This document shows, piece by piece, positions 2,029-53,890 of a DNA stretch of 64,000 nucleotides (its first letter is position 1; every line of letters starts with the position of its first letter). Source of the DNA: a virus (Duplodnaviria > Heunggongvirae > Uroviricota > Caudoviricetes); the IMG/VR virus record IMGVR_UViG_3300008107_000010; one strand, written 5' to 3'. Under the pieces are notes generated by a model that had not been told where the DNA came from, made no database searches, and was given only the letters and a program-made list of their open reading frames with translations. Position numbers and translations under genes: made by a program.

Positions 2029-3960
2029 TTAGTTTTTAATAATTCTAACCGATCCCTTTTGACCAGTTGCTTGTAAAGTTCCAAAATATAAGCCTTGCGC
2101 GACATGATTGATATTAAAATCATAATTATAAACTCCAGCAGGCATATCTTTATCAAAAATAACATGTATTGGTCGACCATTCATATCATATACTTCTAAT
2201 CTAACTCGACCTGTATTTTTAACTTCGAATTTAATATTTGCGTAACCAGTGGTTGGATTTGGATAAACCATCATTTTAGTTTCTTCTTCAGTTACACCAA
2301 TTACGCTTGGCGCTGACATTTTAAATACAACTAAAATACCATTAGTTGGAGAAACTGATAAATCTTTAGAATTTACATCTCCTGAAAACTTTCTAGTAGT
2401 TGCAAGAGGTGACTGACCCCATTGATTTTGTGGTCTTTTTGCAATAAATCTTAGTTTAAAAACTTCATATCCGTCAGGAATCATATAATCTTTATTTGCA
2501 GATGGGTCATAACCTGCCCATTCAATCATATCGTCCATTGGATTAAGAGAAGACATCCAAAACATTGCTTTTGGCGAGTTTTTAATATCTTTAAATTCTA
2601 ATAAACTATCATTATAAATTAAACCTAATTGAAGTGAAGATACTTCTAAACCATTAGTATTAACAACTACTGGAAGTTCAACTAAGTTGCCTTCAGTAAC
2701 TGTTAGGTGTGGTAGGTTCACTTCAATATTGTTAGTTGGAAAATCATATTCAACCTTCATGTCAATCACATTTTCAATAGCGGCTGGTGTGCCGGGTTGA
2801 GGATTTGTGGTAACTTCAATTGGCGTTAAACGCGCCATGTTATAACCAGTACCGTTCGCATCACCAGGAACTAGAACATAGAATTGAACTGAATCAGGTT
2901 GACCTGGTAAAATATTATAATAGAAATTAGTTACACCAGGAATAGATGAAGTATAGTTAGTTGCAGGTGTACCAGTGATAGTATTCTTTTCAGATACTGT
3001 AAAGAATTTAACATCTTTTACACCATTGGGCCAAACTGAAAATCTTCCGGCAATTCTACCAAATACGCCATAAGCATCGGTGATTGAGATATTATTAGAT
3101 CCATTAACATCGCCAGTGTAGAAATCCCACGCTGATGGAGTTGCAGATCCTAGTACCCATTGATTAATTAATTGAGCATCTGCTGTTGAAATTACGTTGC
3201 CAACAGTCATTGTATCACCTTTAATTGCTAAACGAACATCATAGTATGTTGTATCAATTAATTCAGTAAATGCAAAATCGCCATTTAAATCAGTAGTGTA
3301 AGATGCATGTTGAGACCAAGTTGATCCAGTTTTAACTTTCTTTTCTAATGCCAATGTTAGGTTTTTAGCACCAGTTCCAGTTACGTTTGTAAATGTACCA
3401 TGGAAATTAAGTTCTGGCTTTTCCCATACACCACCATAACTATGTAAAGTTAAAGTTGTGTCCATACCATCTTGAGTAGCTGCAACTTGAGAATACGTTG
3501 CAGAACCAGTCCATGTTAAATCAGAAATTGCAGAAAGAGCATAGAAAGAAGATGCAGTAACGTGTGTGAATGTCATTTCAAATCTTTCTCCATCTGGAAT
3601 TTCATACGTAGATGACGAACCTGTATAAACAACAGTAGCGGTAAGATAACCGCCAGCATTATTGTCAACAAATTGTAAGTTTAAGTTTGATGTAGAACCT
3701 AATAGAGCAATAGAAGCTGCTGAAAAGGCATTTTTATCATAAAAAATTCTAAACTGATAACCAGTTATTAGAGTTGAAGTGGTGTTTTGAACTGTTAATT
3801 TGGCTTTTGATTGAGCCTGAATACTAGTACCGACTTGGTATGTTGTATCGATAATAACATAGATTCCATTACCTGGTGCCGGAGGTCCTGTTTGAGAGAA
3901 ACCAACGAATGGAGTAATGAAAGCTAATAGAACGAGTAGATTCTTTAAAAAGTTTTTCAT
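2029..3960 (-). CDS. secreted protein with T9SS (Por) C-terminal sorting domain
   Basis: N-terminal signal peptide MKNFLKNLLVLLAFITPFVGFSQ. The C-terminal ~80 aa (VYPNPTTGYANIKFEV...LEVYDMNGRPIHV...AGVYNYDFN...GLYFGTLQATGQKGSVRIIKN) match the Bacteroidota T9SS CTD pattern (YPNP...vYd..G......GvY......G.Yf). The middle is Thr/Ser-rich and beta-rich. Confidence 0.7.
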   Translation of the reverse strand: MKNFLKNLLVLLAFITPFVGFSQTGPPAPGNGIYVIIDTTYQVGTSIQAQSKAKLTVQNTTSTLITGYQFRIFYDKNAFSAASIALLGSTSNLNLQFVDNNAGGYLTATVVYTGSSSTYEIPDGERFEMTFTHVTASSFYALSAISDLTWTGSATYSQVAATQDGMDTTLTLHSYGGVWEKPELNFHGTFTNVTGTGAKNLTLALEKKVKTGSTWSQHASYTTDLNGDFAFTELIDTTYYDVRLAIKGDTMTVGNVISTADAQLINQWVLGSATPSAWDFYTGDVNGSNNISITDAYGVFGRIAGRFSVWPNGVKDVKFFTVSEKNTITGTPATNYTSSIPGVTNFYYNILPGQPDSVQFYVLVPGDANGTGYNMARLTPIEVTTNPQPGTPAAIENVIDMKVEYDFPTNNIEVNLPHLTVTEGNLVELPVVVNTNGLEVSSLQLGLIYNDSLLEFKDIKNSPKAMFWMSSLNPMDDMIEWAGYDPSANKDYMIPDGYEVFKLRFIAKRPQNQWGQSPLATTRKFSGDVNSKDLSVSPTNGILVVFKMSAPSVIGVTEEETKMMVYPNPTTGYANIKFEVKNTGRVRLEVYDMNGRPIHVIFDKDMPAGVYNYDFNINHVAQGLYFGTLQATGQKGSVRIIKN

Positions 3961-3973
3961 TTTTTATTTTAGA

Positions 3974-4795
3974 TTATTTTAAAAGGTTGTAGTATTCTTT
4001 GAAATGCTTAATACGATCAGCAAGACCAATTGTACCACCGTTTACTCTTTTAGTTACTGCAGTAACTGTAGCATCATCAGCACCTCTATCACAAATAGAC
4101 CATAATCCATTTGAATTAAAGAAGAATGCAGCAGAAGCTAAAGGATATTTAGTTGCAACTAAATCAGGATTTGCAATAGTATCTTCACCAATAAATTTAG
4201 CAAAGTTTGTGTAGTTTGATTTACCAGTTAATTGGATATAACCTCTACCACGGAATTTAAATCCTTCTTTTGATGCCTCATCTCCATTACCCATTCTAGA
4301 TGCGTAAACCTTTGATGCAATTTTTTCAGGGTTTCTAGCATATCCAGCTGCTGTAGTTGCATTGAAATACTTTCCAAAGATTTTTACTAATCCATCAGCT
4401 GAATAATTAAGATTTTCTGAAACTGCCCTGAAGCCGCCACTTTCATGTCCACATTGTGCTAGAAAATGAGCAAGTCTTAATGTATTTGTAATTCCAAACT
4501 TAGCAGCAGTATCTGGAATTTGTGCAATAACGGCGTCAGGAATATGTCCTTTTAAAGCCTCTAACTTAAATTGAGAAGCTGGAATTGAAACTGGAGCTGC
4601 GGTCGATGCAGAAGATCCGAACATCTTTCCCCAAGTTCCATCACCAACAATACCATCTGGTGTTAAACCATTTTTTGATTGCCAAGCTTTTACAGCTTCA
4701 GCAGTATTTGGCCCAAATGAACCATCGGCCTTAAGGCCTAATTTTTCTTGTAATTTTTTAACGTCCTCACCTGAAGACCCTACTTTTAGTAACAT
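3974..4795 (-). CDS. endolysin: peptidoglycan-binding domain fused to a GH19/chitinase-like muramidase
   Basis: N-terminal PG_binding_1-like repeat (GSSGEDVKKLQEKLGL.ADG.FGP.T..AVKAWQ). Catalytic region has the GH19/COG3179 signature AHFLAQCGHESGGF. Confidence 0.75.
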   Translation of the reverse strand: MLLKVGSSGEDVKKLQEKLGLKADGSFGPNTAEAVKAWQSKNGLTPDGIVGDGTWGKMFGSSASTAAPVSIPASQFKLEALKGHIPDAVIAQIPDTAAKFGITNTLRLAHFLAQCGHESGGFRAVSENLNYSADGLVKIFGKYFNATTAAGYARNPEKIASKVYASRMGNGDEASKEGFKFRGRGYIQLTGKSNYTNFAKFIGEDTIANPDLVATKYPLASAAFFFNSNGLWSICDRGADDATVTAVTKRVNGGTIGLADRIKHFKEYYNLLK

Positions 4796-4815: not shown

Positions 4816-5112
4816 TTATTCTGCTGTTTCTTCTGCTGATTCTTGAGAAGTTGCTTTCTTTACATCTTTTTTAGCAGCTGTAAATTTATCAATTGAAGAT
4901 AAACCTAAGCAACCAAAAGCTAAAAGAGCAACTGCATCTACAAGGTAAGGAGCAGGAGCAACATCAACAGTTGAAAAACTATTGTGATACATTGTTACAC
5001 AAAGCGCTACAGCACACATAATGCCGACAAAACGTTTTGATGATGGGGTTCCAGACTCGTCTTTGAACAAGCCGCCAACCCATTTTACAGAGTTTTCGAT
5101 TAATTTTTTCAT
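4816..5112 (-). CDS. holin-like small membrane protein
   Basis: 98 aa with two TM segments (FVGIMCAVALCVTMY; AVALLAFGCLGL) and a charged C-terminal tail. It lies directly upstream of the endolysin. Confidence 0.45.
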   Translation of the reverse strand: MKKLIENSVKWVGGLFKDESGTPSSKRFVGIMCAVALCVTMYHNSFSTVDVAPAPYLVDAVALLAFGCLGLSSIDKFTAAKKDVKKATSQESAEETAE

Positions 5113-5167: not shown

Positions 5168-5184
5168 ATTTTAATATAAAGGAA

Positions 5185-5208
5185 AAGGGACTCAGAAATG
5201 AGTCCCTT
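5185..5208 (-). terminator. intrinsic terminator hairpin (10-bp stem, GAAA loop)
   Basis: aagggactca-gaaa-tgagtccctt, followed on the minus strand by TTCCTTTATATT. Lies after the nuclease gene. Confidence 0.5.
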
Positions 5209-5231
5209 CTAAGATTAGTTGTAAAAATATT

Positions 5232-5849
5232 TTATCTGCAGTTACATTTAAATTTAGTGTAATCTGAATTTATTGGCTTGACATTTGGAAAGAAATAACA
5301 GTCAATAGTATTTCCATATTTAATAGTTTTATAGAATCCGGTTGGAATTGCAGCACCAGATGACAATCTAGTTATTTTCTTGAATTCAACTTGGATTGTA
5401 ACATATACATCATATCTTTTTGCTAGCTCACGTTCTTGAATTTCTAGCATCTTCCATGGACCACGATTTAGGCTTTGTTGTTGAAGTGCTGAATTAGCGT
5501 ATGAGAAAGTTGTACGTAGCATTGTTGTGTTACAGTTAAACGATGCAGCAGGGGCCATGTGACCTTTATCCCATTCGTTTGCAACATAATCAGCATTATC
5601 AGAAGTTTTAAGACCTGGTACCGTATAGAAATCCATACCCGATCTTGATGCAGTTCCAGTTGGACATAAAACTTTATATTCAACAGCTCTAGGTTGTTCT
5701 AACACCTCTGAATAGAGAATCTTAAAGTATTCATTTTGAACTACAACACTGTCTCGAAGAGTTTGTGACCACCCAGTGACAGCAGACAAGGTGATTAATA
5801 GAAATAATAATAATTTTTTCATTAGTCTGGTTTTATTTATTAGCTTCAA
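5232..5849 (-). CDS. secreted DNA/RNA non-specific endonuclease (Serratia NucA family)
   Basis: Signal peptide at the N-terminus. Active-site motif WDKGHMAPAA (the DRGH motif) plus a downstream NRGPW..LE motif. Confidence 0.7.
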   Translation of the reverse strand: MKLINKTRLMKKLLLFLLITLSAVTGWSQTLRDSVVVQNEYFKILYSEVLEQPRAVEYKVLCPTGTASRSGMDFYTVPGLKTSDNADYVANEWDKGHMAPAASFNCNTTMLRTTFSYANSALQQQSLNRGPWKMLEIQERELAKRYDVYVTIQVEFKKITRLSSGAAIPTGFYKTIKYGNTIDCYFFPNVKPINSDYTKFKCNCR

Positions 5850-6743: not shown

Positions 6744-7871
6744 TTAATTACTTAAAGGTGCCTTAATTTCAGGCTGTGATTTATAGTTTACTAATTTAAT
6801 TGAGTTTCTATCAATTTTTTCAAAAGCAGTTATGTACCCTTGAGTTTTTTCGTATTCAAAATCCAAATTAATAGTTGGTAGTTCTAAAGGTTCTCGACCA
6901 ATTTGTTCTTTTGCCTGCTCAAGATGATTTAAATACAAATGAGTATCTCCAAGATTTCCAATTAATTCATCAGGAACCATGTTAACTCTCTTAGCCAACA
7001 TTTCCAATAATAGACCATAAGAAGCAATATTAAATGGTAAACCTAAGAATGTATCGACTGATCGTTGATTCCACATTAAAGAGATTGCTCGTTTTGGAAC
7101 AGGGTATAGTTTATCAATTTCATCATGGTCAATTTTAGCAGGATGACCAAAATCAAATGGGTCGAATACGCTATATGTTTTTGCTGCTAAATCTAATCTT
7201 TCTGATACATTTAGCTCTCTTGTATAAACTTGAAATCCATAATGACAGGGTGGAAGTGTCATTTTATCAAGATCTGCAACATTCCAAGCGTTAACCATCA
7301 GGCGTCTAGAATCTGGATTCCTTTCAAGATCTGCAATAAGTCGAAGTATTTGGTCATACCAAAGAGAACCATGCCCAGTTGAACCATCATTATTTTTATA
7401 TTGCATCCAACCTTGCCATTGTCTCCATTGTTTACCATAAACTGGGCCAAGTTCTCCCCAAACTTTTGAGAATTCTGGCCAATTCTTAATTGCATCAACA
7501 AATTCAGATTCGGTCATAATACGAATCTTAGACTCTTCAAGATCCTCAACATGAACACTCATATCTGGCTCTTCTAAGTTAGAGGCATACTGTTTATATT
7601 TCTTGTAGGCATCTCCATTCCAAATATTACAACCATTATCAACAAGATATTTGATATTAGTGTCGCCCTGTAAAAACCAAAGCAGTTCAGTTACCATTGA
7701 CTTAAATGCCATTTTCTTAGTTGTCAAAAGAGGATAACCTTCGGACATTTTATGGCGGATCTGGCGACCAAAAACAGAAATCGTACCAGTTCCAGTACGA
7801 TCTTTTTTAACTATGCCATTTTCAAGAATATCTTTTAATAAAGCTTGATATTGTTTATCTATGTTATTCAT
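6744..7871 (-). CDS. thyA: thymidylate synthase family enzyme (ThyA or pyrimidine hydroxymethylase) with three insertions
   Basis: DRTGTGT, LLWFLQGDTN, GPVYGKQWR, catalytic PCH, GLPFNIASY and GDTHLY all align closely with E. coli ThyA. It is 375 aa versus 264 because of about 45, 12 and 35 aa insertions. Confidence 0.8.
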   Translation of the reverse strand: MNNIDKQYQALLKDILENGIVKKDRTGTGTISVFGRQIRHKMSEGYPLLTTKKMAFKSMVTELLWFLQGDTNIKYLVDNGCNIWNGDAYKKYKQYASNLEEPDMSVHVEDLEESKIRIMTESEFVDAIKNWPEFSKVWGELGPVYGKQWRQWQGWMQYKNNDGSTGHGSLWYDQILRLIADLERNPDSRRLMVNAWNVADLDKMTLPPCHYGFQVYTRELNVSERLDLAAKTYSVFDPFDFGHPAKIDHDEIDKLYPVPKRAISLMWNQRSVDTFLGLPFNIASYGLLLEMLAKRVNMVPDELIGNLGDTHLYLNHLEQAKEQIGREPLELPTINLDFEYEKTQGYITAFEKIDRNSIKLVNYKSQPEIKAPLSN

Positions 7872-8220
7872 GTTCTGTTAATTTGCGAATATTTACTTTG
7901 ATAATTCCGGCACTTAATTTAGCAATTGATTTAAACGCAGCTAATGATAAATCTATTTTGTTATTTTTAATAGCTCCGCCTCGATCATTTACCCTGACGA
8001 CGACGGATTTACCATTTGTTAAGTTAGTAATTTCTAAAAGATCACCAAATCTAAATTTAGAATCAGCAGCGCATGTTAGAGCATTCATGTCATAAACTTC
8101 GCCAGAAGCTGTTTTTCTACCATGATGTTGTGTGCTGTAATAAGTTGCAGTTCCAGTAACTTGTGTAAATCCATAAACACAAATTAATAGGAATGCAAAA
8201 ATAAGAATTTTAATGTACAT
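7864..8220 (-). CDS. RlpA-like double-psi beta-barrel (DPBB) secreted protein
   Basis: Signal peptide. ATYYSTQHHGRKTASGEVYD...TCAA...GDLLEITNLTNGKSVVVRVNDRG...IDLSLAAF matches the RlpA/3D domain. Confidence 0.6.
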   Translation of the reverse strand: MYIKILIFAFLLICVYGFTQVTGTATYYSTQHHGRKTASGEVYDMNALTCAADSKFRFGDLLEITNLTNGKSVVVRVNDRGGAIKNNKIDLSLAAFKSIAKLSAGIIKVNIRKLTEHE

Positions 8221-17369: not shown

Positions 17370-19283
17370 TTATAAACCATATCTATTTCTATTCGCATTG
17401 AAGTTTCGTAATACTTCATCATCTGAGAGTGCTTTTCTATAAACTCTAAATTGTGAAAAAGATCCTTTATATACGGCACTTCCTCCGCTATATGTACTTA
17501 ATCCAAATCCATTACTACCTCGGCCCATGCCACTATTATGAAAATCAAAGTTTGGATTACCATCGATATAAACTCCATTTCGGTATGTTCTTAAGGATCC
17601 ACTAGTACCTGTAGTATTTGTAAAAACCCATGTAAAAAGATTCCATGCATTATTTTCCCAATAGCCCATTCCGCCTGGATAATCTCCACTTGGACTTCCT
17701 GGAAAATAGTGTGAACCCATGCAACTATTATGACAATAAAACATAGGACCATAATTACCATTGGCTCCCATAGATAAAATTCCATAAGAACTTCCTTGGT
17801 CTAGTCCATTATGATAGAATGCCAATTCTAATGTAAAATCAGAATGTCCTCCAGGTAGAGTAGTATTTCCAATCCAGTCATCAACGCCATCGCAAATTAC
17901 TGATTTTACTCCTGCTGTTAACCCAAATCTAGCACCATTGTATAAATTAGCATGGTGACCACCTCCGCTTAAATCATACCATACCGCATTTTGCGATCTT
18001 GAGCCGGCAACAAATGGGGTTATTGAAGGTTGCTGTTCGATTTGAATATTAGCAACATCTATTTTCATATCTCCGGTAGATGGAAACCAATATGAAATAA
18101 GCACGTTATGCGTTGGAGTAAAAGTAAAACTGCATCTTACCCATTCTCCCTGTGCACCAGTATATGCATTCATATAGAATCCACTGGCTCCAGCAGGACC
18201 TTGATAATTGTAGTGTTGAAATGCAATATATTGACCAACCGCGCTAGGAGATGCAGCTCTTACCCAAAATGAAGTTGTAACTGGAACTCCAATAGTTACT
18301 GAAGCATCTACACCATAAGACATTCCATCCGTTGCATCTGATCTAAAAAAATGTAGACGAACACAATCAGTTACTGGATGTCCAGCTACATTAAATCCAC
18401 CTGATATAATCTCTTTAACTAAAGCTGAATTAGGCTGATGAGGATATCCCCACCATTTGGTTGGAAATCCAGAAGCATTAACAGAAACTCGTTGGTCTAA
18501 CCAAAATGAATCATGTACTTTAAATCTTCCGGTAGCTGGATTTAAATATCCTTGAGATCCATCTTGTGAACCATTATATTCATGTAAACTAAATTTAGTA
18601 TCTGAGATTTTTTTAGCTAAATATTGAGTACCGCCGGACAATCCTCCGCCTGATGATTGAGGATTAATCACATCAAAAGATCTAATTTGATGAGCGCTTA
18701 CGGTTGTAACTATATTATCAGATACCGATGCAATTGCAGGAATATCCCAATATACAGCACATCCATTATTTCCACAATATTGATTAGTATTATATGTACC
18801 CCATCCATTTCCAACTGTAGGATACGCGTTGATTGTTGGGTTCGGAATTAAGTTCGTGGTTGGTTTATTATCAACAAAACTAGAAACATGTTCAGCATCA
18901 AGATTTAATATTAATCCGTCTGTGACTATATTTTCAATTGAACTATTTAACACAGCAACACCAGATTGGTCTACTGCCCAATTTAACGCAGCGGTAGCAC
19001 TAGGTGAATTAGCGCCTAGAGCATTAAGTTTACCAAGTAGTTGTGTATCGTTTGCTGCGCGAAAAACTCCATCTGGTCCATATATTGTATATCCACCGGA
19101 CGGTATATCAGCACCGTTATAGAAACCGGTTACCGAACTTGGACCATCTCCTATATTATTTGGAGTTGTATCGATTGCCCAGTTACCTTTAAAAATAGAA
19201 TTAGGCTCTGATCCTGTCTTGTTTCTTTTAAATTTATTTGGCATTACAACCCGAATCTTTTCTTTTATATATTTTAAAAACAA
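17370..19283 (-). CDS. large protein with C-terminal concanavalin A/LamG-like domain (possible virion or host-recognition protein)
   Basis: C-terminus ...TYRNGVYIDG...FSQFRVYRKALSDDEVLRNF is typical of LamG/pentraxin jelly-roll domains. The G/S/N-rich body is beta-rich. The probable start is the internal Met at 19244. Confidence 0.45.
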   Translation of the reverse strand: MFLKYIKEKIRVVMPNKFKRNKTGSEPNSIFKGNWAIDTTPNNIGDGPSSVTGFYNGADIPSGGYTIYGPDGVFRAANDTQLLGKLNALGANSPSATAALNWAVDQSGVAVLNSSIENIVTDGLILNLDAEHVSSFVDNKPTTNLIPNPTINAYPTVGNGWGTYNTNQYCGNNGCAVYWDIPAIASVSDNIVTTVSAHQIRSFDVINPQSSGGGLSGGTQYLAKKISDTKFSLHEYNGSQDGSQGYLNPATGRFKVHDSFWLDQRVSVNASGFPTKWWGYPHQPNSALVKEIISGGFNVAGHPVTDCVRLHFFRSDATDGMSYGVDASVTIGVPVTTSFWVRAASPSAVGQYIAFQHYNYQGPAGASGFYMNAYTGAQGEWVRCSFTFTPTHNVLISYWFPSTGDMKIDVANIQIEQQPSITPFVAGSRSQNAVWYDLSGGGHHANLYNGARFGLTAGVKSVICDGVDDWIGNTTLPGGHSDFTLELAFYHNGLDQGSSYGILSMGANGNYGPMFYCHNSCMGSHYFPGSPSGDYPGGMGYWENNAWNLFTWVFTNTTGTSGSLRTYRNGVYIDGNPNFDFHNSGMGRGSNGFGLSTYSGGSAVYKGSFSQFRVYRKALSDDEVLRNFNANRNRYGL

Positions 19284-19724: not shown

Positions 19725-20345
19725 TTAGTTTTCTTTTCTGCCTCCAACGGACTCAGCGATGAGTGATTTTCCACGACGGATACGGTTTTTAATAGTTTGT
19801 AACGGCAAGTTGTATTTAACTGCAAGGTCTTCATATTTGATTTTGTTAATCAAACGGTCAACTACGATTTCACGATAAATTGGTTTTAATTTCTCCATTG
19901 CACGAATACAATTATCATAACGGGCTTGAAGTTCGTTATCTTCTTCAAGAAAATCGATTTCAGTTTTAAAATCTAAATCATCAACAAGAGAACCAATAGT
20001 TTCAATCATAACGCTTCCGCCGTCATTAACTTCCATACCATATTCTTCAAGACGTGTTAATGATGTTTTCTTATTACGCTCATTGATATAACCAAGACAT
20101 TCGTTAAATGCAATTCGATATAACCAAGTCGTGATTTGATACTGTGGATCATACTGATCGATTTTGGTCCACATTTTAGTCAATGTATTAACTAAAATAT
20201 CATCTGCTGCTTCAGAATCTTTTACAATTTTAGAAATGTAAGATCTAAGACCTGGTTTAACTTTACGATACAATGCAGTGAAATCTGCTTCAGAACGAGT
20301 TTCTAGATAATTTTCGGTAAGTTCTCTGTAATTTGCTTTAGACAT
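19725..20345 (-). CDS. sigma-70 family (ECF-like) RNA polymerase sigma factor
   Basis: Region-2-like ADDILVNTLTKMW...YQITTWLYRIAFNECLGYINERNKK and region-4-like YEDLAVKYNLPLQTIKNRIRRGKSLI. Confidence 0.65.
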   Translation of the reverse strand: MSKANYRELTENYLETRSEADFTALYRKVKPGLRSYISKIVKDSEAADDILVNTLTKMWTKIDQYDPQYQITTWLYRIAFNECLGYINERNKKTSLTRLEEYGMEVNDGGSVMIETIGSLVDDLDFKTEIDFLEEDNELQARYDNCIRAMEKLKPIYREIVVDRLINKIKYEDLAVKYNLPLQTIKNRIRRGKSLIAESVGGRKEN

Positions 20346-22102: not shown

Positions 22103-22582
22103 TTAGAAATTTGGATTTGTGATTCGGCAGTCGAAGTTTGTAAAACCTTCATACTGTTTTTCATCGGCTTCGATTCGACGTTCCCATGGATCATGTGTAT
22201 CTCCGCGTTGAGAAAGACGCTCAGCACGAACTTCGAATGGAATATCTAAATAGACAACCCAGCATCTTTTACGATATTCTTCAGATAACATTGCTAGACC
22301 TTCAACATTTAAAATCATAGCATCACAACGCTCAAATTCATCTTTGTGAATACCATAATAGAATCCTACAAACTCTTGCCATTCAACGAATTCATCATTA
22401 GCAATCATCTCCTTGAACTTTTCTACAGTGGTAAAATGATAATCAGATCCATCAACTTCTCCAACCCTAGGTGGTCGAGTAGTGTGAGAAACACCATATT
22501 TAAAACCTCTATCTATTAAAACTTTACGGAAATGGTCTTTGCCTGACGCAGCTTTACCAACTAATACGATCTTACTATCCAT
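22103..22582 (-). CDS. gmk: guanylate kinase
   Basis: P-loop GKAASGKD and the guanylate kinase signature SHTTRPPRVGEVDGSDYHF. Confidence 0.7.
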   Translation of the reverse strand: MDSKIVLVGKAASGKDHFRKVLIDRGFKYGVSHTTRPPRVGEVDGSDYHFTTVEKFKEMIANDEFVEWQEFVGFYYGIHKDEFERCDAMILNVEGLAMLSEEYRKRCWVVYLDIPFEVRAERLSQRGDTHDPWERRIEADEKQYEGFTNFDCRITNPNF

Positions 22583-26524: not shown

Positions 26525-26545
26525 GTTATTAACATAGTTATTAAC
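26525..26545. promoter_or_regulatory. two tandem GTTATTAAC palindromes overlapping the stop of the CCA-enzyme gene
   Basis: aaaaaagttattaacatagttattaac. Confidence 0.35.
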
Positions 26546-27281
26546 ATTTTTCGAATGTTGGTTTTAACCATAAACCTCGATCAAAAATCAGATCTAAAAA
26601 TCCTGGAATTGATTTAGAGTCAACTAAATGTAACAATCTTATTGTAGCTGGAGTATCATGCGCCATCATCTTAAAAACTTCTTCACGGATCCTCTCAGCA
26701 CTAACAGTAGTTCTTAACTTATCAAGAATGTCTTTTTGCATCATAGCCAACCAAATCTCATCAGAAATACTAAAGCCTTTGGTGATTTTAAACCTTAGAG
26801 CTCGCATAATACGAAGAGGATCGTCCATCATTGTTTGTTCAGCAGGTAGAGGAGTTCTTAAAATTCTTTTAGCTAAATCAGCTTGACCGCCAAATGGATC
26901 AATTAAATTTCCATGCTCATCTTCAGCAATCGCATTCAATGTAAAATCTCGACGTAAAAGGTCATCTTCAAGAGTTCCAAGTTCTAAGATTGGACGACGA
27001 GTTCCTTCTACATATCCAACTTCTTTACGAGCTAAAACAAAATCTGCAACCAAACCTTCATTTTCATGACCCTTTGGAAATTTAGCTCTAATTGTAAAAC
27101 AATCAGGTGTACTCAAAAAGATTGTAAATTCTTTATGAGTCAACCAATCTGACATAATTTGGAATCCTTCTTCTACAGTTCTGTCTAAATTATCTAAGAC
27201 AAATGTAAAATCAATATCTTTAGACTCTAATCCCATTAGAGCATCTCTTACGCAACCTCCGACTTTAAATATTTGTGGCAT
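26541..27281 (-). CDS. cca: minimal tRNA nucleotidyltransferase (CCA- or A-adding enzyme; Pol-beta/poly(A) polymerase head domain family)
   Basis: VGGCVRDALMG...KDIDF, DLLRRDFTLNAIA and GGQADL...RTP...DDPLRIMRALRF are class II CCA-adding enzyme head/neck motifs. Only 246 aa. Confidence 0.75.
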   Translation of the reverse strand: MPQIFKVGGCVRDALMGLESKDIDFTFVLDNLDRTVEEGFQIMSDWLTHKEFTIFLSTPDCFTIRAKFPKGHENEGLVADFVLARKEVGYVEGTRRPILELGTLEDDLLRRDFTLNAIAEDEHGNLIDPFGGQADLAKRILRTPLPAEQTMMDDPLRIMRALRFKITKGFSISDEIWLAMMQKDILDKLRTTVSAERIREEVFKMMAHDTPATIRLLHLVDSKSIPGFLDLIFDRGLWLKPTFEKC

Positions 27282-32607: not shown

Positions 32608-32697
32608 TGGCGGAGAGGGAGGGATTCGAACCCCCGTTACCCTTTCGAGTAAAACGGTTTTCAAGACCGCCGCGTTCAACCGCTCTGCCACCTCTCC
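32608..32697 (-). tRNA. tRNA-Ser (anticodon UGA), class II with long variable arm, CCA encoded
   Basis: Minus-strand sequence GGAGAGGTGGCAGAGCGGTTGAACGCGGCGGTCTTGAAAACCGTTTTACTCGAAAGGGTAACGGGGGTTCGAATCCCTCCCTCTCCGCCA. 7-bp acceptor stem, anticodon loop CUUGAAA, T-arm GGGGG-TTCGAAT-CCCTC, one A:C mismatch in the D-stem. Resembles E. coli tRNA-Ser(UGA). Confidence 0.8.
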
Positions 32698-32738: not shown

Positions 32739-35657
32739 TTAATTATCATCTCTAACATTGATAGTAACACTTTCTAGTAATGTTCTTAGTTGAGATAATG
32801 TAATTCCAGGTTTATTATCAACTGGAGCAGGTTTTCCTGCCGGACCTGGTGTTGTAGATTTACCAGGAGCCGGTGCTGTAGTACCTGCGGGTGCTGGTGT
32901 TCCGGTTGGTGCTGGTGGAGTTGAAACTTTATTCTTAAATTCTTCAATCATATCAGCAAGATGCTTAATTGAATCATTGAGAGCTTTACTCATTTGGTCA
33001 ACTGAACCGCGACCTTTATAACCTGAAAGATATGCTAAACCTTGGAACATATCACTTGTAAATTTCAAGTTAACTTTATCAAATGCATTTAATGTATCTT
33101 TTAATCGACCCATATCATCAACATACTTCTTAAAGTTGTCAACAAATTTAACCCATGGATCAATATTCTTTCCAATTTCTTCAAGTTTCTTAGCAACATC
33201 TCCTAAAACAAGAACAAAACTTTCTTGTTGTTCAGCATCTTCTCCAGCTGCAGAAAGAGCAGTTGTCATACCACTAATAATTCCTTGAATTTTTCCAGTT
33301 AAAGCAGCCGGATCAACATTTACTTCCATAAATGTTTTTGCAGCTTGTGCAATTTTTAAAATTGGTTCTGCGAAACTTGTTACAATTTCAACACCATCTT
33401 CGATTTTAGAAGAACCAAACCAACCCCAGTCATTTTGAGCATCTGGATTATTACCAATCTCACCCATAGTTCCAGTCAAACTAATAACAAGTTGACGAAT
33501 ATTTTGAGTTACTTTAGTAATTGCATCGGCTCCCATTGATTCATAACCAACAATTTTTCCATCTTTGTAGATTGGAATTTTAAGGTCAGCCATTGCTTGA
33601 ACTCCTTTTGCAATTTCAGCAACTGCAGCACCCATACCTTGAACTGCACCAATACCATCAATATTTTCTTTTAATCTATCAAATGCTCCAGAATCTAGAG
33701 TATTATAACCAACAATTTTAGTTCCTTCATAAATTGGAAACTTAAGATCAGCCATTGATTGTACTCCACCAGCAATTGAAGTTAATACATCTCCCATTCC
33801 CATTACCGCGGCAATACCGTCGGCGACTGGAGATTGAGATCCACCTCCAAAAACTCCTTGTAAGAAGGTTTTCTTACCACCTGGATATTTAAGTCCTAAT
33901 TCACCAAAGGTTGTACTTAGTGAATTTACAATTAAATTGATATTATCATTAACCTTTTTAAACGTGTCACTAGATAGTGTAAAATAACCTGTAATTTTAG
34001 TTCCTGTATAAATTGGAAACTTTAGGTCAGCCATTGCTTGTACGCCTTGTGCAATTGAAGATAAAGCATCTCCCATTCCCATTACCGCATCAATACCATC
34101 GGCTACAGCAGATTGAGATCCACCTCCAAAAATACGGCTTAAAACACTTTTTCTACCTCCTGGAAATCTTTCACCAATTGCGCCAAAAGCTCCAGCTAAA
34201 ACTGTAACTAATTTACCAATTTGATCTGGTAAAACATCATAATCAATATTTAAACCTTGTACTTTTTTAATACCATAAGCAACTGTTGCTAATGCAACTC
34301 CAACCATAATCATTGCGGGTGCGGTAGCGTACATTGATGCGATATTTACAGGACTAAGTGTAAATGAACGAGCAATAGATAATAATAACCATTCCATATT
34401 ACTCATCATTCTTCCTGCACCAAAACCAAGGAATCCTTCAGTTTCATGACCAGAATCTCCGAGCATTTTACTCATATCTGTGTCATTAAATAGTTTAGCC
34501 ATAGCCCCAGCACCCACTGAAACAAGTAATAATGCTATACCAGCAACAATCATTGCGGCGGCACCAGCAAGAATAAATCCTGAAGCGGCGCCAGCAAGTC
34601 CCATAACAAGACCTACTCCAGTAACTAATGCACCGATCTGACCGATTGTTATCCATCCAGCTTCATCCGGTGTAATAGATTCAGCAAATATTGCAACAGC
34701 AACTCCTAGTAAAATAATTGGAATTGCAGCAACAATCATAACTAAACTTCCTAAAAATATTTCTTTAGCAAATTTACCAGCCAAGTACATAACCAATGCT
34801 ACTCCGACAACCATTCCCATTACCATTAGTAAGGTTATAGCAGGATCGTCCATTGCTTGCATCATTGTATCAACTAATAAAAATGCTACGCCTAATAGAA
34901 CGATAGCTCCCGCAGCAAACATTAAACCAATTGAAACTTGTTTCATTGATTTTTCAATGTTCATCTTATCTAATAACCAAAATACGCCACCTAATGCTAA
35001 TAATGTTAAAACAATATATGGTAATGCAGATATTCCGGCTGGATATAAAACGGTTGCAAGTACTAATGCAACTCCTAAAAGTAGAATGGCCTTTGCCACA
35101 TCACCCATTGCAATTAATGCTTGTTGTGTTTTTGGATCCGACAATGGAGCGGATGCCATTTGTAAAACTTTAGTGATAATAAATAATGATAATCCAAATA
35201 ATGGAGCTGCTAGCGCACCAACTACTAAAAGTGGTGTTGCTAAGAATAGGTAACCAGCAAATTTAAGAATTGCTGGACCTATTTTTGATAGAGCATCTAT
35301 TGTTAATACTAAGGCTTCTGCTTTATCTTTAAATTCTTTAGAAGTGCTTTTCATTGATTCGATAGCCTCAACGATTGCTGCTAATCCTTTACCGATTCCT
35401 TCTAAACCTTTTCCGCCAACAATTTTTAATGCAATTGCATTTCCAATTCCTAGACCTCCGCCGCCTCCTCCGCCGCCTCCTTTTGCAGAAGCAGCAGTGT
35501 TAACTGCAATTTGCTTTAACAGTTTTACCATCTCCTCAACTTTACCAAAAAGAGCACCGCCCGGGGAAACAGCTATTGATGTTACCTGGGCAGATGCTAC
35601 TAATTGTTGTTGATTTTCTATCGAAAGCCTTTCAAAGGCACTTTTAAAAATGTTCAA
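32739..35657 (-). CDS. tail tape measure protein
   Basis: 972 aa, downstream of sheath, tube and chaperone genes. Contains a Gly8 tract, multiple TM helices and a threefold ~75-aa repeat (MADLKFPIY.GTKI.GY). Apparent TTG start. Confidence 0.55.
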   Translation of the reverse strand: MNIFKSAFERLSIENQQQLVASAQVTSIAVSPGGALFGKVEEMVKLLKQIAVNTAASAKGGGGGGGGGLGIGNAIALKIVGGKGLEGIGKGLAAIVEAIESMKSTSKEFKDKAEALVLTIDALSKIGPAILKFAGYLFLATPLLVVGALAAPLFGLSLFIITKVLQMASAPLSDPKTQQALIAMGDVAKAILLLGVALVLATVLYPAGISALPYIVLTLLALGGVFWLLDKMNIEKSMKQVSIGLMFAAGAIVLLGVAFLLVDTMMQAMDDPAITLLMVMGMVVGVALVMYLAGKFAKEIFLGSLVMIVAAIPIILLGVAVAIFAESITPDEAGWITIGQIGALVTGVGLVMGLAGAASGFILAGAAAMIVAGIALLLVSVGAGAMAKLFNDTDMSKMLGDSGHETEGFLGFGAGRMMSNMEWLLLSIARSFTLSPVNIASMYATAPAMIMVGVALATVAYGIKKVQGLNIDYDVLPDQIGKLVTVLAGAFGAIGERFPGGRKSVLSRIFGGGSQSAVADGIDAVMGMGDALSSIAQGVQAMADLKFPIYTGTKITGYFTLSSDTFKKVNDNINLIVNSLSTTFGELGLKYPGGKKTFLQGVFGGGSQSPVADGIAAVMGMGDVLTSIAGGVQSMADLKFPIYEGTKIVGYNTLDSGAFDRLKENIDGIGAVQGMGAAVAEIAKGVQAMADLKIPIYKDGKIVGYESMGADAITKVTQNIRQLVISLTGTMGEIGNNPDAQNDWGWFGSSKIEDGVEIVTSFAEPILKIAQAAKTFMEVNVDPAALTGKIQGIISGMTTALSAAGEDAEQQESFVLVLGDVAKKLEEIGKNIDPWVKFVDNFKKYVDDMGRLKDTLNAFDKVNLKFTSDMFQGLAYLSGYKGRGSVDQMSKALNDSIKHLADMIEEFKNKVSTPPAPTGTPAPAGTTAPAPGKSTTPGPAGKPAPVDNKPGITLSQLRTLLESVTINVRDDN

Positions 35658-37786: not shown

Positions 37787-40354
37787 TTAGCTGAAGTTTC
37801 CAGTTTGAATTTCGCCAGTATTTAATACTGTAGTTCTGTGAACAACGATTTCAAGACCTTTAACTGGTTCAACAAAAGTATCTAAGATACCGATGTTGTT
37901 GTCAATAACTTCATTTGTATTATTTGTTTGGTCAATAATGTTTTTGAAGTCATATACACCTTGATCAGCTTTAACTGATTCCATAAATGCATCAGCTAAA
38001 GTTTTGATTTCAAGTCTAGTTTGAGCTGTATTGAATTCAAATACGTATCCTTTTAGAATGTTAGCTAAACCTTCTTGGATATAAATCAATACTTCTCTTA
38101 CGTGAGCAGAAGAAAGCGCTGATTTAATTGACTGTTGTGCAGTTTTATTACCAAGAATTGTTAAACCTACACCTCTTTGGAATACGATTGGGTTAATACC
38201 AAATGGTTCTAATACGTCTCTATCAGTTTTATCGAATGCATATTCAACTCCAACAACTCCAGTTCCAGATACAACTCCTCTTCTTGGACCAGCAATAATT
38301 GACCAAGGTAATGCAGTTGAATATTTATCAATGTAGTTATTAGATACGTATGCTGCGGGTGGGATAACAATATCTTTACCATTTTCTCTAACTGTTAAAC
38401 CTGGACCATAATAAAATCCGTAGTTTGCACCATCAGCGATTGAAGGTAAAGTATAGAATGCAGTTGGATTTTTATCCAAGTTTCCACCATCTTTTAAGTA
38501 TTCTACGCTAAATGCTCCATCAGCATCTGTGAAAGATGGGTTAGTTGATTTTTTGAAATCAGCTACAGTTGGTGCATTTAAGATTGCAGAAGCATTTTGT
38601 CTCTCGTGAGCAAGATAAGCTAATTCTTTCTTGTTTTGAATACCATCAACAGTATCAAATGAACCGAAAGTATCAACAATATATCTGTAAAGAATTAAAT
38701 CTTTGTCAGCTAACGCATTGAATAAGTTAGTTCCTACGATTGCGTTTAAAGAATCGGTTATTGTTTTATCACCAATAGTTGCTTTAGCAATAATGAATGG
38801 TTTGTATACTGAAGTAGCTTCTTCGAAAGAAACTAGGTAGCTACCACCCCAAGTATTTGGTACGTTATTATCAGTTGTTACAGTTACTGTTGTGGTTGTA
38901 TTACCACCAGAAGTAACTACAGATTTTGTAACTGATTTAATTTTAGCCAATCTACCAGAAGTAGCAGAAGGAACATAGTGTCCTTTCTTAAGAGTTACAG
39001 TTGAAATTGCAGCACTATAAGTAAAAGTAAAAATACCACCACCTAAGTTTGCATATGTTGCGGTAACTGTACCGTTTCCGGCTAAGTTTGATTCAGATCC
39101 AGTATAAGGAATTACTCTATCAGTTGTGATAGCATATTTTTTAAAGCTAGTTGCGTTATTTAATGAAGTTTTAATTGCACCATCGCAAGTTACTGTTGTA
39201 GTACCACTTGCAAAAACAACGCTTAATACTTCAACATATTCACCGCTAGTAGCTGCTTCAATAAATGAACCAACTGCAAGAGATGAAGTTAAATCTTGTG
39301 CAACAGTCATAGTTGAACCATTAACAGTTAAAACGTTAGGATTTGTTAAAGTTACAGTTGTTCCAGCAGTTGGATTTAATTCTTGGTCAACGATATAAGA
39401 AAGTAACTGATAGTTTTGATCTTTATCAAATGTATGACCAATTAAATCTACTTTAGTACCAGTATCGCTAGTAACTGCATCTTCATCAACTGCACAGAAT
39501 AAACCAGTTCTTCTAGCTTCTGAGTTAATGATTGTTTCAATGTATAAGTTTCTACCTTCAAGATCTTTGAAGTTAGGGATTAATGAACCAGTGTAGTTGG
39601 CAATTAATGAAACTTGTCTTAGGTTAGAGAAAGCGTCTAATTGACCTTTCAATAAACCTTTTGCGTTAAAATAATTTGCGTAGATTGGATCATTTGCAAG
39701 AGTAGCAGGATTGAATTCGCCTTTAAATACGAATACATCAATCATGAAATCTGATAAGTAATCTTTTTCATTTAAGAATTCAGGTACATTACCTTCACCA
39801 TACCATTCTCTAGCAGTAATATCGAATGTAGATACATCCTGTGCTTTTCTTACGATAATAGTAATTGGCTCTTGTTTGATGTTAATAAAGTTAATAATTC
39901 TGTCATCGTTTTGACCGATTGTAGAAATAGTAGCTTCATCACTAGGGAACCAGAATTTATCAGTGTTAAAAAACTTAGTATATTCATCGCTACCTGAAAG
40001 TGATAACGCAGTATGATCGCTACCAGTAGTAACTGGAGCAACATAGCTGATTTCATCGCTAGCTTCGAATGTTGATAAGTTTAAGGCTAAGATTGGGCCT
40101 CTAGTAAGAGCAGCAAGTGCTGATCTGTGGAAGAACATACCCTTCTTCTCTAGGTTTCTGTCGATACCGCCGAAGACCGCATTGAAATCTTCTACTGTCT
40201 CAACAAACACTGGAGTATTGTATGGACCTTTTTTAGAGTGACCAACTACCAATCTGATAGTCTCTGTAGCAAAGTTCGTAGTTTGTGATTTATCGAATTC
40301 TAGACGATAAACACCCGAACTCTTGAATTGCAATAATTGAGGACTTAGTGCCAT
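37787..40354 (-). CDS. contractile tail sheath protein (T4 gp18-like)
   Basis: N-terminal MALSPQLLQF resembles T4 MTLLSPGIEL. C-terminal WSIIAGPRRG...INPIVF...ILGNKTA resembles gp18 WMSPAGYNRG...INPV...LYGDKTA. Confidence 0.8.
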   Translation of the reverse strand: MALSPQLLQFKSSGVYRLEFDKSQTTNFATETIRLVVGHSKKGPYNTPVFVETVEDFNAVFGGIDRNLEKKGMFFHRSALAALTRGPILALNLSTFEASDEISYVAPVTTGSDHTALSLSGSDEYTKFFNTDKFWFPSDEATISTIGQNDDRIINFINIKQEPITIIVRKAQDVSTFDITAREWYGEGNVPEFLNEKDYLSDFMIDVFVFKGEFNPATLANDPIYANYFNAKGLLKGQLDAFSNLRQVSLIANYTGSLIPNFKDLEGRNLYIETIINSEARRTGLFCAVDEDAVTSDTGTKVDLIGHTFDKDQNYQLLSYIVDQELNPTAGTTVTLTNPNVLTVNGSTMTVAQDLTSSLAVGSFIEAATSGEYVEVLSVVFASGTTTVTCDGAIKTSLNNATSFKKYAITTDRVIPYTGSESNLAGNGTVTATYANLGGGIFTFTYSAAISTVTLKKGHYVPSATSGRLAKIKSVTKSVVTSGGNTTTTVTVTTDNNVPNTWGGSYLVSFEEATSVYKPFIIAKATIGDKTITDSLNAIVGTNLFNALADKDLILYRYIVDTFGSFDTVDGIQNKKELAYLAHERQNASAILNAPTVADFKKSTNPSFTDADGAFSVEYLKDGGNLDKNPTAFYTLPSIADGANYGFYYGPGLTVRENGKDIVIPPAAYVSNNYIDKYSTALPWSIIAGPRRGVVSGTGVVGVEYAFDKTDRDVLEPFGINPIVFQRGVGLTILGNKTAQQSIKSALSSAHVREVLIYIQEGLANILKGYVFEFNTAQTRLEIKTLADAFMESVKADQGVYDFKNIIDQTNNTNEVIDNNIGILDTFVEPVKGLEIVVHRTTVLNTGEIQTGNFS

Positions 40355-53869: not shown

Positions 53870-53890
53870 ATTTATAGACACTATGTTTCT

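Follow-up and report, generated by a model that had tools for sequence, protein, structure and literature searches.

The stretch of viral DNA analysed here, 64,000 nucleotides of IMG/VR record IMGVR_UViG_3300008107_000010 (referred to throughout as the window), carries at positions 2029–3960 of its minus strand a gene for a protein of 643 residues, which we call T643. The open reading frame (ORF), running from ATG to stop, fits these coordinates exactly. An earlier reading of the DNA letters by themselves (the sequence-only reading) had taken this interval, without naming a strand, to be a phage gene for a secreted protein sorted by the secretion system of type IX (T9SS), and the phage assignment stands: a scan against PHROGs identified in the same window genes for a tail sheath (37787–40354), large terminase (40408–42228), major head protein (50270–51751), prohead protease (51881–53881) and portal (54314–55927). 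The window is that of a large freshwater myovirus, apparently of Flavobacterium type, with nearly all genes on the minus strand and a G+C content of ~33%. By sequence and predicted structure, T643 is built from a signal peptide, a first cohesin module, a beta-sandwich, a dockerin-like module, a second cohesin module, a linker and a T9SS type A C-terminal sorting domain (CTD). A PHROGs scan of T643 itself returned one meaningless match only (E 0.009), hence the protein carries no phage-family annotation.

The first 22 residues (3895–3960, minus strand) read as a Sec-type signal peptide with a predicted signal peptidase I cut at GFS↓Q. The N-terminus, MKNFLKNLLVLLAFITPFVGFS followed after the cut by QTGPPAPG, combines a basic n-region and a hydrophobic core with an A/S-x-S/A↓Q site, and Gln23 at position +1 is invariant in 50 homologues within a signal peptide that itself averages only 30% pairwise identity. 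Glutamine at +1 is the Q-rule of Bacteroidetes signal peptidase I substrates (PMC5837995), which has likewise been pointed out for phage proteins of Porphyromonas gingivalis (PMC10367356). Judged by its sequence and conservation, the N-terminus of T643 fits a signal peptide that obeys this rule.

At the opposite end, residues 565–643 (2032–2268, minus strand) match Pfam PF18962 (Por_Secre_tail) with 40.9 bits (cut-off 27; E 2.6e-10), or 45.9 bits when the tail is scanned by itself, and NCBIfam TIGR04183, the type A model, with 38.7 bits (cut-off 23) over profile positions 1–72 of 72 and up to residue 643 of 643. A type B model was absent from the NCBIfam matches. The motif YPNP ... G.Y ... KIIK is present, residues P567, N568, P569, F578, G595, G609, G623 and Y625 are invariant over 50 homologues, and AlphaFold2 (AF2) predicts a seven-strand beta-sandwich. 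The linker that precedes it (residues 541–564; 2269–2340, minus strand) is predicted to be disordered, with a predicted local distance difference test score (pLDDT) below 50 over residues 541–565, and shows 31% mean pairwise identity; the CTD thus occupies the extreme C-terminus behind a flexible linker, an arrangement expected of type A cargo. The sequence-only reading had named both targeting signals, quoting the CTD motif and proposing a search with these two models as the check on it; both models give scores above their curated cut-offs, so that the refuting outcome it had named, a C-terminus lacking any significant match, did not arise, and the key motif positions prove invariant. By sequence, T643 belongs to the T9SS type A cargo family, and it is very probably a genuine cargo of that system. 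It is also the sole protein with such a domain among the window's 66 minus-strand ORFs of at least 90 residues: a scan of the concatenated C-termini of the other 65 with NCBIfam, from which the 11 plus-strand ORFs were left out, gave no match to TIGR04183 or TIGR04131 at E ≤ 0.05.

Between these signals lies a passenger whose two outer modules resemble cohesins. Encoded at 3481–3873 (about residues 30–160) and 2341–2763 (about residues 400–540) on the minus strand, they match Pfam Cohesin independently and each near full length: the first alone scores 19.4 bits (E 1.3e-3; profile positions 17–128 of 139), the second 20.6 bits (E 5e-4; positions 2–114 of 139). Over the whole of T643 the Cohesin profile (PF00963) reaches 34.2 bits as the sum of two stretches, against a gathering cut-off of 24.1, and its best stretch spans residues 413–514. 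An AF2 model of T643 built on 50 homologues has a mean pLDDT of 73.5, rising to ~85–94 in the sandwich domains, and renders cohesin 1 as a beta-sandwich with pLDDT ~90. When the whole model was compared with the PDB by Foldseek, type I cohesins (6kgd, 1anu, 1ohz, 4dh2, 2xdh) were returned with TMt 0.68–0.74, a root mean square deviation of 3.0–3.5 Å and probability 1.0, in an output that leaves open which of the two modules was the aligned one; the top fold match overall was 2w1n, the non-cellulosomal cohesin-FN3 of Clostridium perfringens GH84C. With a profile score above the gathering threshold and a jelly-roll beta-sandwich fold in the model, T643 is assigned to the cohesin family and is predicted to bind dockerins.

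The stretch between the cohesins forms a further unit, shared with the lectin-bearing partner proteins described below. It opens with a beta-sandwich (about residues 175–248; 3217–3438, minus strand; AF2 pLDDT ~90) that has weak Pfam matches of the CarboxypepD_reg, SdrD_B and transthyretin-like kind. This is followed by the dockerin-like module (about residues 249–305; 3046–3216, minus strand), which consists of two repeats, and the unit is completed by a beta-rich segment (about residues 306–395; 2776–3045, minus strand) that AF2 models with low to medium confidence. A profile of the family over residues 244–312 matches a solved dockerin, 4uyp_B from ScaB of Acetivibrio cellulolyticus, with E 3.7e-4 and with both repeats aligned. 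The second loop, D284-V-N286-G-S-N-N-I-S-I-T-D295, is of canonical length, with no variation at D284, N286 or D295. Pfam Dockerin_1 stays below threshold here, so that the dockerin-like assignment draws its support from the profile match in the PDB and the loop pattern. The module is the most conserved segment of T643, at 74% mean pairwise identity. Pfam scans found no catalytic domain anywhere in T643, and the passenger is not an enzyme.

A search of 5.8 billion proteins returned more than 120 full-length homologues of T643, ~620–660 residues long and 56–100% identical to it; among the matches listed, Por_Secre_tail was pre-annotated in 120 of 120 and Cohesin in 119 of 120. Relatives are encoded on 273 IMG/VR viral contigs, and across 80 IMG/VR loci the architecture is fixed at ~640 residues, with 52–100% identity. 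A member in UniProt/BFVD, 57% identical, bears the automatic name 'Secretion system C-terminal sorting domain [uncultured Caudovirales phage]'. Among 185,579 bacterial and archaeal genomes (one per species, GTDB) a single T643 locus was found, on a 16.5-kb contig (RFPL01000028.1; locus L007) of a metagenome-assembled genome labelled 'Sphingomonadaceae bacterium'. This contig has the same phage gene order as the window and carries homologues of T643 and of three genes that follow it, B120, C113 and A255, the order of B120 and C113 being swapped; it is probably a phage contig mis-binned into an alphaproteobacterial genome. An exhaustive phmmer search with passenger residues 24–545 against 1.84 billion cluster representatives yielded 110 matches only, about 15 of them full-length (627–668 residues, 24–62% identity) and the remainder fragments or partner proteins, with no large cellular scaffoldin among them. 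The T643 family is phage-specific and lacks close cellular homologues. A recent origin from a host gene was considered and rejected, the sole match in a cellular genome being the contig with phage gene order.

Conservation is distributed unevenly along the protein. Mean pairwise identity is 0.30 in the signal peptide, 0.31 in the linker and 0.44 in the CTD, and reaches 0.58–0.74 in the passenger modules; signal peptide and CTD are nevertheless kept across the more than 120 homologues, their motif positions invariant while the sequences around them drift. This is the pattern expected of working targeting signals around a constrained functional core, and it argues that the CTD is no decaying remnant of a captured host gene. 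The same figures bear on a different role for the CTD, namely that, as abundant phage cargo, it clogs the host T9SS or its PorV/PorU attachment machinery and so stops the secretion of host adhesins and receptors, for example gliding adhesins, with the passenger of minor importance. Flavobacterium mutants in the T9SS and in gliding resist many phages, and T9SS-dependent surface proteins thus act as receptors. Together with a CTD retained in all 120 homologues listed, these receptors would suit jamming. The passenger, however, is more conserved than the CTD (58–74% against 44% identity), and a mere plug would need neither specific interaction modules nor conserved partner genes, so that we regard jamming as improbable.

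The partner genes came into view beyond the left edge of the window. At 99% identity to the window, the 109.8-kb IMG/VR contig UViG_3300032092_000011 (locus L008) represents the same phage, window position x corresponding to L008 position 13961 − x. It encodes, at 14971–16725, a 584-residue secreted lectin-type protein whose C-terminal 174 residues are 34% identical (E 1e-18) to residues 186–369 of T643, a region that takes in sandwich, dockerin and closing strands. Within the window, a hidden Markov model (HMM) of the family's dockerin segment found no dockerin module other than that of T643; the partner gene lies just past the left edge. In the 50 loci offering 6 kb or more of flank downstream, the same HMM detected a second dockerin-module protein 3–5 kb downstream of T643 in 34, a lower bound given that the model is narrow and family-derived. 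These loci yielded 35 distinct partner sequences, two of them truncated ORFs; the 33 full-length partners listed have 302–990 residues, and all carry a signal peptide ending in A/G-Q and the module at the C-terminus, which stops at the equivalent of about residues 369–374 of T643. The N-terminal heads vary, including C-type lectin (Lectin_C; best score 52 bits), Laminin_G_3 (ConA-like; best score 96 bits), GEVED, Ig_7 and pentaxin-like domains. Canonical DVNNDGxIxxxD loops occur in several partners, sub-threshold EF-hand matches were also obtained, and two of six scanned partners independently give Dockerin_1 scores of 16.5–18.2 bits, below threshold.

A combination of cohesins and dockerins is best known from cellulosomes, and T643 might accordingly be viewed as an auxiliary gene for nutrient acquisition, an enzyme scaffold that raises polysaccharide degradation by the infected host. 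T9SS-linked multi-modular cellulases do occur in Bacteroidota (PMC5831590), and the T9SS cargo of a previously described phage, Cryophage, includes an endoglucanase and a GH39 protein (PMC7468147). In the present case, however, no catalytic domain was detected in T643 or in the seven partners scanned (the 584-residue protein and six from other loci), the partners showing binding-type domains only, and cellular genomes hold next to no members of the family. An enzyme scaffold is therefore the least probable of the alternatives that we considered, and polysaccharide degradation, one of the roles floated by the sequence-only reading, is not supported; surface remodelling and superinfection exclusion, which it also raised, are still candidates. 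Because the payload heads are not enzymes, T643 is not a component of a cellulosome, and it may instead work like an adaptor or anchoring scaffoldin.

A natural division of the gene indicates how the modules may fit together. The only GenBank phages with any similarity to the window are 160-kb Flavobacterium myoviruses, vB_FspM_immuto, whose host is Flavobacterium sp. LMO8 from the Baltic Sea, and they carry a T643 homologue at ~31% identity. In immuto (MW353176, 8010–9834; locus L001) this homologue is divided at a module boundary into two neighbouring genes, which are read in different frames and are ~31–33% identical to T643. The first, gp14 (363 residues), comprises cohesin 1, the sandwich and the dockerin behind a signal peptide, and its end, ...YYLLVLGDVNGTGLN, is exactly the point at which the partner proteins end. 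The second, gp15 (243 residues), has its own signal peptide, MKSWIVILLLSINSLYS with the cut before Q, and behind it cohesin 2 (scoring 36.6 bits) and the T9SS CTD (36.7 bits). GenBank lists gp14 as hypothetical and gp15 as cohesin domain-containing, and leaves CTD and dockerin unannotated. Directly upstream of the homologue, immuto encodes a C-type-lectin protein with the dockerin module. Because both halves bear signal peptides of their own, they would be exported independently, which speaks strongly against a cytoplasmic or virion role, and by Rosetta-stone logic the fission suggests that the halves work together. The simplest link between them would be binding of the gp14 dockerin by the gp15 cohesin. 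We infer from the split a three-tier order, in which cohesin 2 and the CTD form the anchor, cohesin 1 and the dockerin the adaptor, and lectin and dockerin the payload.

Genes around T643 follow each other closely on the minus strand. From 5849 down to 1 the order is a nuclease gene, a hairpin, a holin-like gene, the endolysin gene, T643, C113, B120, A255 and the start of P527. The nuclease (5232–5849) is of the DNA/RNA non-specific type (Endonuclease_NS, 83 bits) and carries a Q-rule signal peptide; as a secreted phage nuclease, periplasmic or extracellular, it is unusual and may be part of the same export-oriented gene island. In immuto, a homologous 'endonuclease G/NUC1' lies two genes upstream of the cohesin genes. 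Between the nuclease and holin-like genes there is a terminator-like hairpin (5183–5210) with a 12-bp stem and a T-run, which probably marks the start of a transcription unit that includes the holin-like gene, the endolysin gene and T643. The holin-like protein (4816–5112), first past the hairpin, has 98 residues, two transmembrane segments and no family match, and owes its label to size, membrane segments, a charged tail and position. The endolysin (3974–4795), which combines PG_binding_1 with a glycoside hydrolase family 19 (GH19) domain, ends 13 nucleotides upstream of T643. Downstream of T643 come C113 (1666–2007; 113 residues), which has one membrane segment at its N-terminus, a K/E-rich tail of low complexity and no family match, and B120 (1296–1658), a multi-pass membrane protein of 120 residues with no meaningful family match. 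A255 (575–1294) is a secreted CsgG-like protein of 239 residues with a signal peptide ending ATA↓Q, and P527 is cut by the window edge after its first ~191 codons (1–573), which comprise a signal peptide, an N-domain and the start of an S/G/N/T-rich region. The plus-strand ORF at 2–283 is an artefact that lies antisense to this low-complexity stretch. From the holin-like gene through A255 the gaps measure 7–21 nucleotides, and no intergenic terminator-like site was found from the hairpin down to position 575; together with the position of the hairpin, the short gaps make it likely that the holin-like gene, the endolysin gene, T643, C113, B120 and A255 are co-transcribed in the window. A scan for sigma-70 promoters performed no better than on shuffled sequence and was not used.

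This arrangement raises the question of whether T643 and the membrane proteins behind it serve lysis, as an accessory to holin and endolysin that would replace a spanin in breaching the outer membrane. The order in the window, with holin-like, endolysin, T643, single-pass, multi-pass and outer-membrane-type secreted products encoded at such short spacing and free of a terminator past the hairpin, would accommodate this role, and no recognisable spanin was seen. We therefore compared 87 related loci, with flanks of up to 10 kb on each side. C113 comes next after T643 in 83 of the 87 and A255 is present in 79 (49–100% identity), B120 being detected in 28. The endolysin lies within the flanks in 45, on either strand and sometimes 5–7 kb downstream; in the other 42 it is absent from the flanks. 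Across this variation T643-C113-A255 keeps together. Thus the invariant unit is T643-C113-A255 and not the lysis cassette. Moreover, neither the fusion nor the disruption of envelopes is a known function of cohesin, dockerin or lectin domains, and T9SS cargo arrives at the external face of the outer membrane, whereas o-spanins act at its inner leaflet. C113 does have the single N-terminal membrane segment of a two-component spanin, but no small lipoprotein partner was found (A255 is not one in the window's clade) and adjacency to the endolysin is not conserved. Although it is the strongest of the competing explanations, a lysis accessory appears unlikely.

The conserved block continues past the window edge, where it was followed in the 28 loci whose downstream flank extends over 8 kb or more. 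The full P527 gene (L008 13388–14971) encodes a signal peptide, ~200 residues of low complexity rich in S/G/N/T/Q, and a 210-residue C-terminal domain that is conserved in 27 of the 28 loci and shows an alternating hydrophobic pattern. No match to P527 was found in Pfam, NCBIfam or the sequences of the PDB. The C-terminal domain is possibly an outer-membrane barrel; profiles gave no support for a PorP/SprF- or PorV-like one. In L008, P527 is followed by the 584-residue lectin-type protein and then by two conserved secreted proteins of 150 residues, P150a (27 of 28 loci) and P150b (26 of 28), which close the block at L008 16725–17608. P150b contains an HExxH-like motif (HESYH) and has weak matches to Zn-protease-like families (DUF2268, SprT-like; E 0.006–0.05). 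A255 is very abundant and highly conserved, with more than 6000 database relatives, some of them labelled 'curli ... channel CsgG' by JGI, but no match in Pfam (PF03783 included), NCBIfam or PDB sequences. Its AF2 model (pLDDT 67) has CsgG as its top fold match in the PDB with probability 1.0 and E 2e-5, at a TM-score of just 0.33–0.43, followed by the outer-membrane lipoprotein folds of LptE, PelC and FlgT type. In a divergent A255 clade (45–49% identity) a lipobox Cys ('CGS') replaces the signal peptidase I site ATA↓QIG. Every product of the block, comprising T643, C113, (B120), A255, P527, the lectin-dockerin protein, P150a and P150b, has a signal peptide or membrane segments.

These neighbours also help to judge whether T643 could instead belong to the virion, its CTD being an Ig-like decoration, its sandwiches fibre or decoration modules and its N-terminus no working signal peptide. 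Phage virions often display Ig-like and beta-sandwich domains, T9SS CTDs are themselves Ig-like in fold, and a fold search of BFVD also returned, with low TM-scores, Big-1, FN3 and CUB domain-containing proteins and putative structural phage proteins. On the other hand, T643 lies ~30 kb away from the structural module at 32–56 kb, its signal-peptide pattern with Gln at +1 is conserved family-wide, both immuto halves bear signal peptides of their own, and the CTD positions that are invariant are those specific to T9SS sorting. With all neighbouring block genes likewise encoding signal peptides or membrane segments, a structural role is quite improbable, somewhat more so than jamming of the T9SS.

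In the mechanism that we propose, T643 would pass the inner membrane by Sec and be cut by signal peptidase I before Gln23. Its type A CTD would then be recognised by the T9SS of a Flavobacteriia-type host, as family membership predicts, for transfer over the outer membrane; the PorU sortase would, as with other type A cargo, remove the CTD, and T643 would be released or attached to anionic lipopolysaccharide. There it would serve as an adaptor or anchoring scaffold, similar to a cellulosomal scaffoldin but anchored by the T9SS, with its cohesins capturing the dockerins of the secreted phage proteins encoded 3–5 kb downstream, which bring variable heads of carbohydrate-binding type. Assembly would be hierarchical, from anchor to adaptor to payload, as the split gene of immuto suggests. 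The partners without a CTD might hitch-hike with T643 through SprA, the wide translocon, might use the CsgG-like A255, or might assemble only at lysis, and the complex may eventually cover the envelope of the infected cell with glycan-binding heads.

Several observations count against this proposal. Each T643 cohesin by itself falls under the Pfam cut-off, which only their sum passes, and an hhalign comparison of the cohesin 1 profile with that of cohesin 2 was not significant and is not used as support. Dockerin_1 (PF00404) gives T643 14.6–14.8 bits, below its gathering cut-off of 22.9; the first calcium loop of the dockerin is degenerate (GDTMTVGN), and AF2 confidence is low over residues 293–313 of this region. 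The narrow HMM found no partner in 16 of the 50 loci. None of the six partners scanned against Pfam shows a T9SS CTD, which gives them no evident way of their own to reach the surface; assembly might alternatively take place in the periplasm, or not until the cell has lysed. The host of the uncultured window phage, and hence its T9SS, is assigned through relatives rather than directly, and export, CTD cleavage, surface anchoring and cohesin–dockerin binding are all predictions. Weighing these points, we put the probability that T643 is a cohesin–dockerin scaffold for lectin partners on the infected cell envelope at roughly 0.55. Any specific biological purpose is considerably more tentative. 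The most likely one is masking of surface glycan receptors, providing superinfection exclusion and shielding progeny from debris; we favour it because exchangeable glycan-binding heads on a conserved scaffold mirror the diversity of host surface glycans. Alternatively, infected cells might adhere to particles or neighbours. Equally tentative is the wider proposal that large Flavobacteriia phages of fresh water, a widespread lineage, possess a self-contained set of about eight genes for a virus-encoded, cellulosome-like 'lectin display' on the outer membrane of the infected cell. Its parts would be the T9SS-anchored cohesin scaffold, interchangeable lectin heads tagged with dockerins and a CsgG-like component of the outer membrane, and partners lacking a CTD would reach the surface on the back of the scaffold through the T9SS or by way of the CsgG-like protein. 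If true, this would be the first viral cohesin–dockerin system and the first piggy-back export through a T9SS.

The probable host is indicated by relatives and genome features that agree with one another. Flavobacterium as host of the immuto phages with the same gene, Q-rule signal peptides and the ~33% G+C content fit a Bacteroidota-type host, the phylum that the sequence-only reading had deduced from the CTD. A near-identity DNA search against GenBank phages returned only a 200-nucleotide thyA segment in immuto, so that no close sequenced relative is available. Relatives reside on viral contigs of 150–434 kb, sizes that agree with recently isolated freshwater Flavobacterium jumbophages (PMC13573597); the words 'secretion' and 'lectin' are absent from that paper, in which the T643 gene set is apparently not discussed.

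Some other genes of the window were noted in passing. The only stretch similar in DNA to immuto (81%) is a thymidylate synthase gene (6744–7871, minus strand) of 375 codons, where the match spans the whole 266-position profile and thus implies ~110 residues of insertions. At 7864–8220 (minus strand) is the gene for a secreted RlpA-like lytic transglycosylase/double-psi beta-barrel protein with a signal peptide (PF03330, 66.6 bits; TIGR00413, 84 bits), a second cell-wall-active gene besides the GH19 endolysin. A protein of 637 residues (17370–19283, minus strand) scores 34.2 bits for the phage head-spike-fibre domain NF048003, just below the cut-off of 36, and matches a PHROG 'virion structural protein' at its C-terminus; it has neither signal peptide nor dockerin module. 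Weak NCBIfam matches of C-terminal fragments, all on the minus strand, point to sigma factors of the extracytoplasmic function type (19725–20345), guanylate kinase (22103–22582) and a CCA-adding tRNA nucleotidyltransferase (26541–27281); a sigma factor, if made by the phage, would matter for when the block is expressed. A single tRNA-Ser gene (anticodon TGA; 32608–32697, minus strand) lies just downstream of a 972-residue ORF (32739–35657).

Phage-encoded T9SS cargo as such has already been published and is not new. The Cryophage carries three variable CTD genes, for an endoglucanase, a GH39 protein and a PA14 protein, described as 'a unique occurrence' (Bellas et al. 2020; PMC7468147), and crAss-like phages encode proteins with T9SS sorting domains beside BACON ORFs (de Jonge et al. 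2019; PMC6949934). Like T643, these are phage genes of Bacteroidota hosts with a type A sorting domain, read as hijacking host secretion. The Cryophage cargo, however, sits in hypervariable island genes with enzyme or PA14 passengers, whereas T643 is conserved, has a fixed cohesin/dockerin architecture and belongs to an envelope block. It was this passenger, the conserved multi-gene block and the prior phage cargo that the sequence-only reading had missed. Immuto resembles the window in having the homologue together with lectin-dockerin, C113-like, A255-like, P527-like and P150a-like neighbours, and differs in that the gene is split in two with the CTD on gp15 only.

Outside phages, cellulosomal scaffoldins (A. 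cellulolyticus ScaB, PDB 4uyp; Clostridium thermocellum CipA/OlpB) share with T643 the presence of cohesin and dockerin in one secreted polypeptide and an implied hierarchical assembly on a cell-surface anchor. T643 differs from them in having a T9SS CTD as anchor instead of an SLH domain or sortase signal, in its Gram-negative setting and phage origin, in lectin-type payloads rather than enzymes, and in its two cohesins only. Non-cellulosomal cohesin–dockerin systems (C. perfringens GH84C, 2w1n; Archaeoglobus fulgidus, 2xdh) likewise form extracellular complexes outside cellulose degradation, but these are cellular, associated with enzymes or toxins, and not sorted by the T9SS. Bacterial type A cargo such as RgpB of P. 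gingivalis and ChiA of Flavobacterium johnsoniae has the same layout of a Sec signal peptide with Gln at +1, passenger, flexible linker and an Ig-like CTD of ~80 residues with PNP, G.Y and K..K motifs; T643 is distinguished by being virus-encoded, by having no catalytic domain and by its lack of close cellular homologues. In a non-exhaustive search of the literature we found no description of a viral cohesin–dockerin system, of a T9SS-anchored scaffold with lectin-dockerin partners, or of an envelope block with a CsgG-like protein.

T643 offers a concrete, testable case of a virus that probably uses a phylum-specific secretion system to rebuild the surface of its host, and since a homologous system exists in the cultured pair of immuto and Flavobacterium sp. 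LMO8, experiments are feasible now. Together with Q-rule signal peptides, the gene is of practical use as a marker by which large uncultured phages can be assigned to hosts among the Bacteroidota, and a T9SS-anchored cohesin could serve as a surface-display handle in Flavobacteriia. If the cohesin–dockerin reading is true, modular scaffold assembly would extend to viruses and to Gram-negative anchoring by the T9SS, and the swappable lectin heads on a conserved scaffold would resemble an arms-race interface comparable to receptor-binding proteins.

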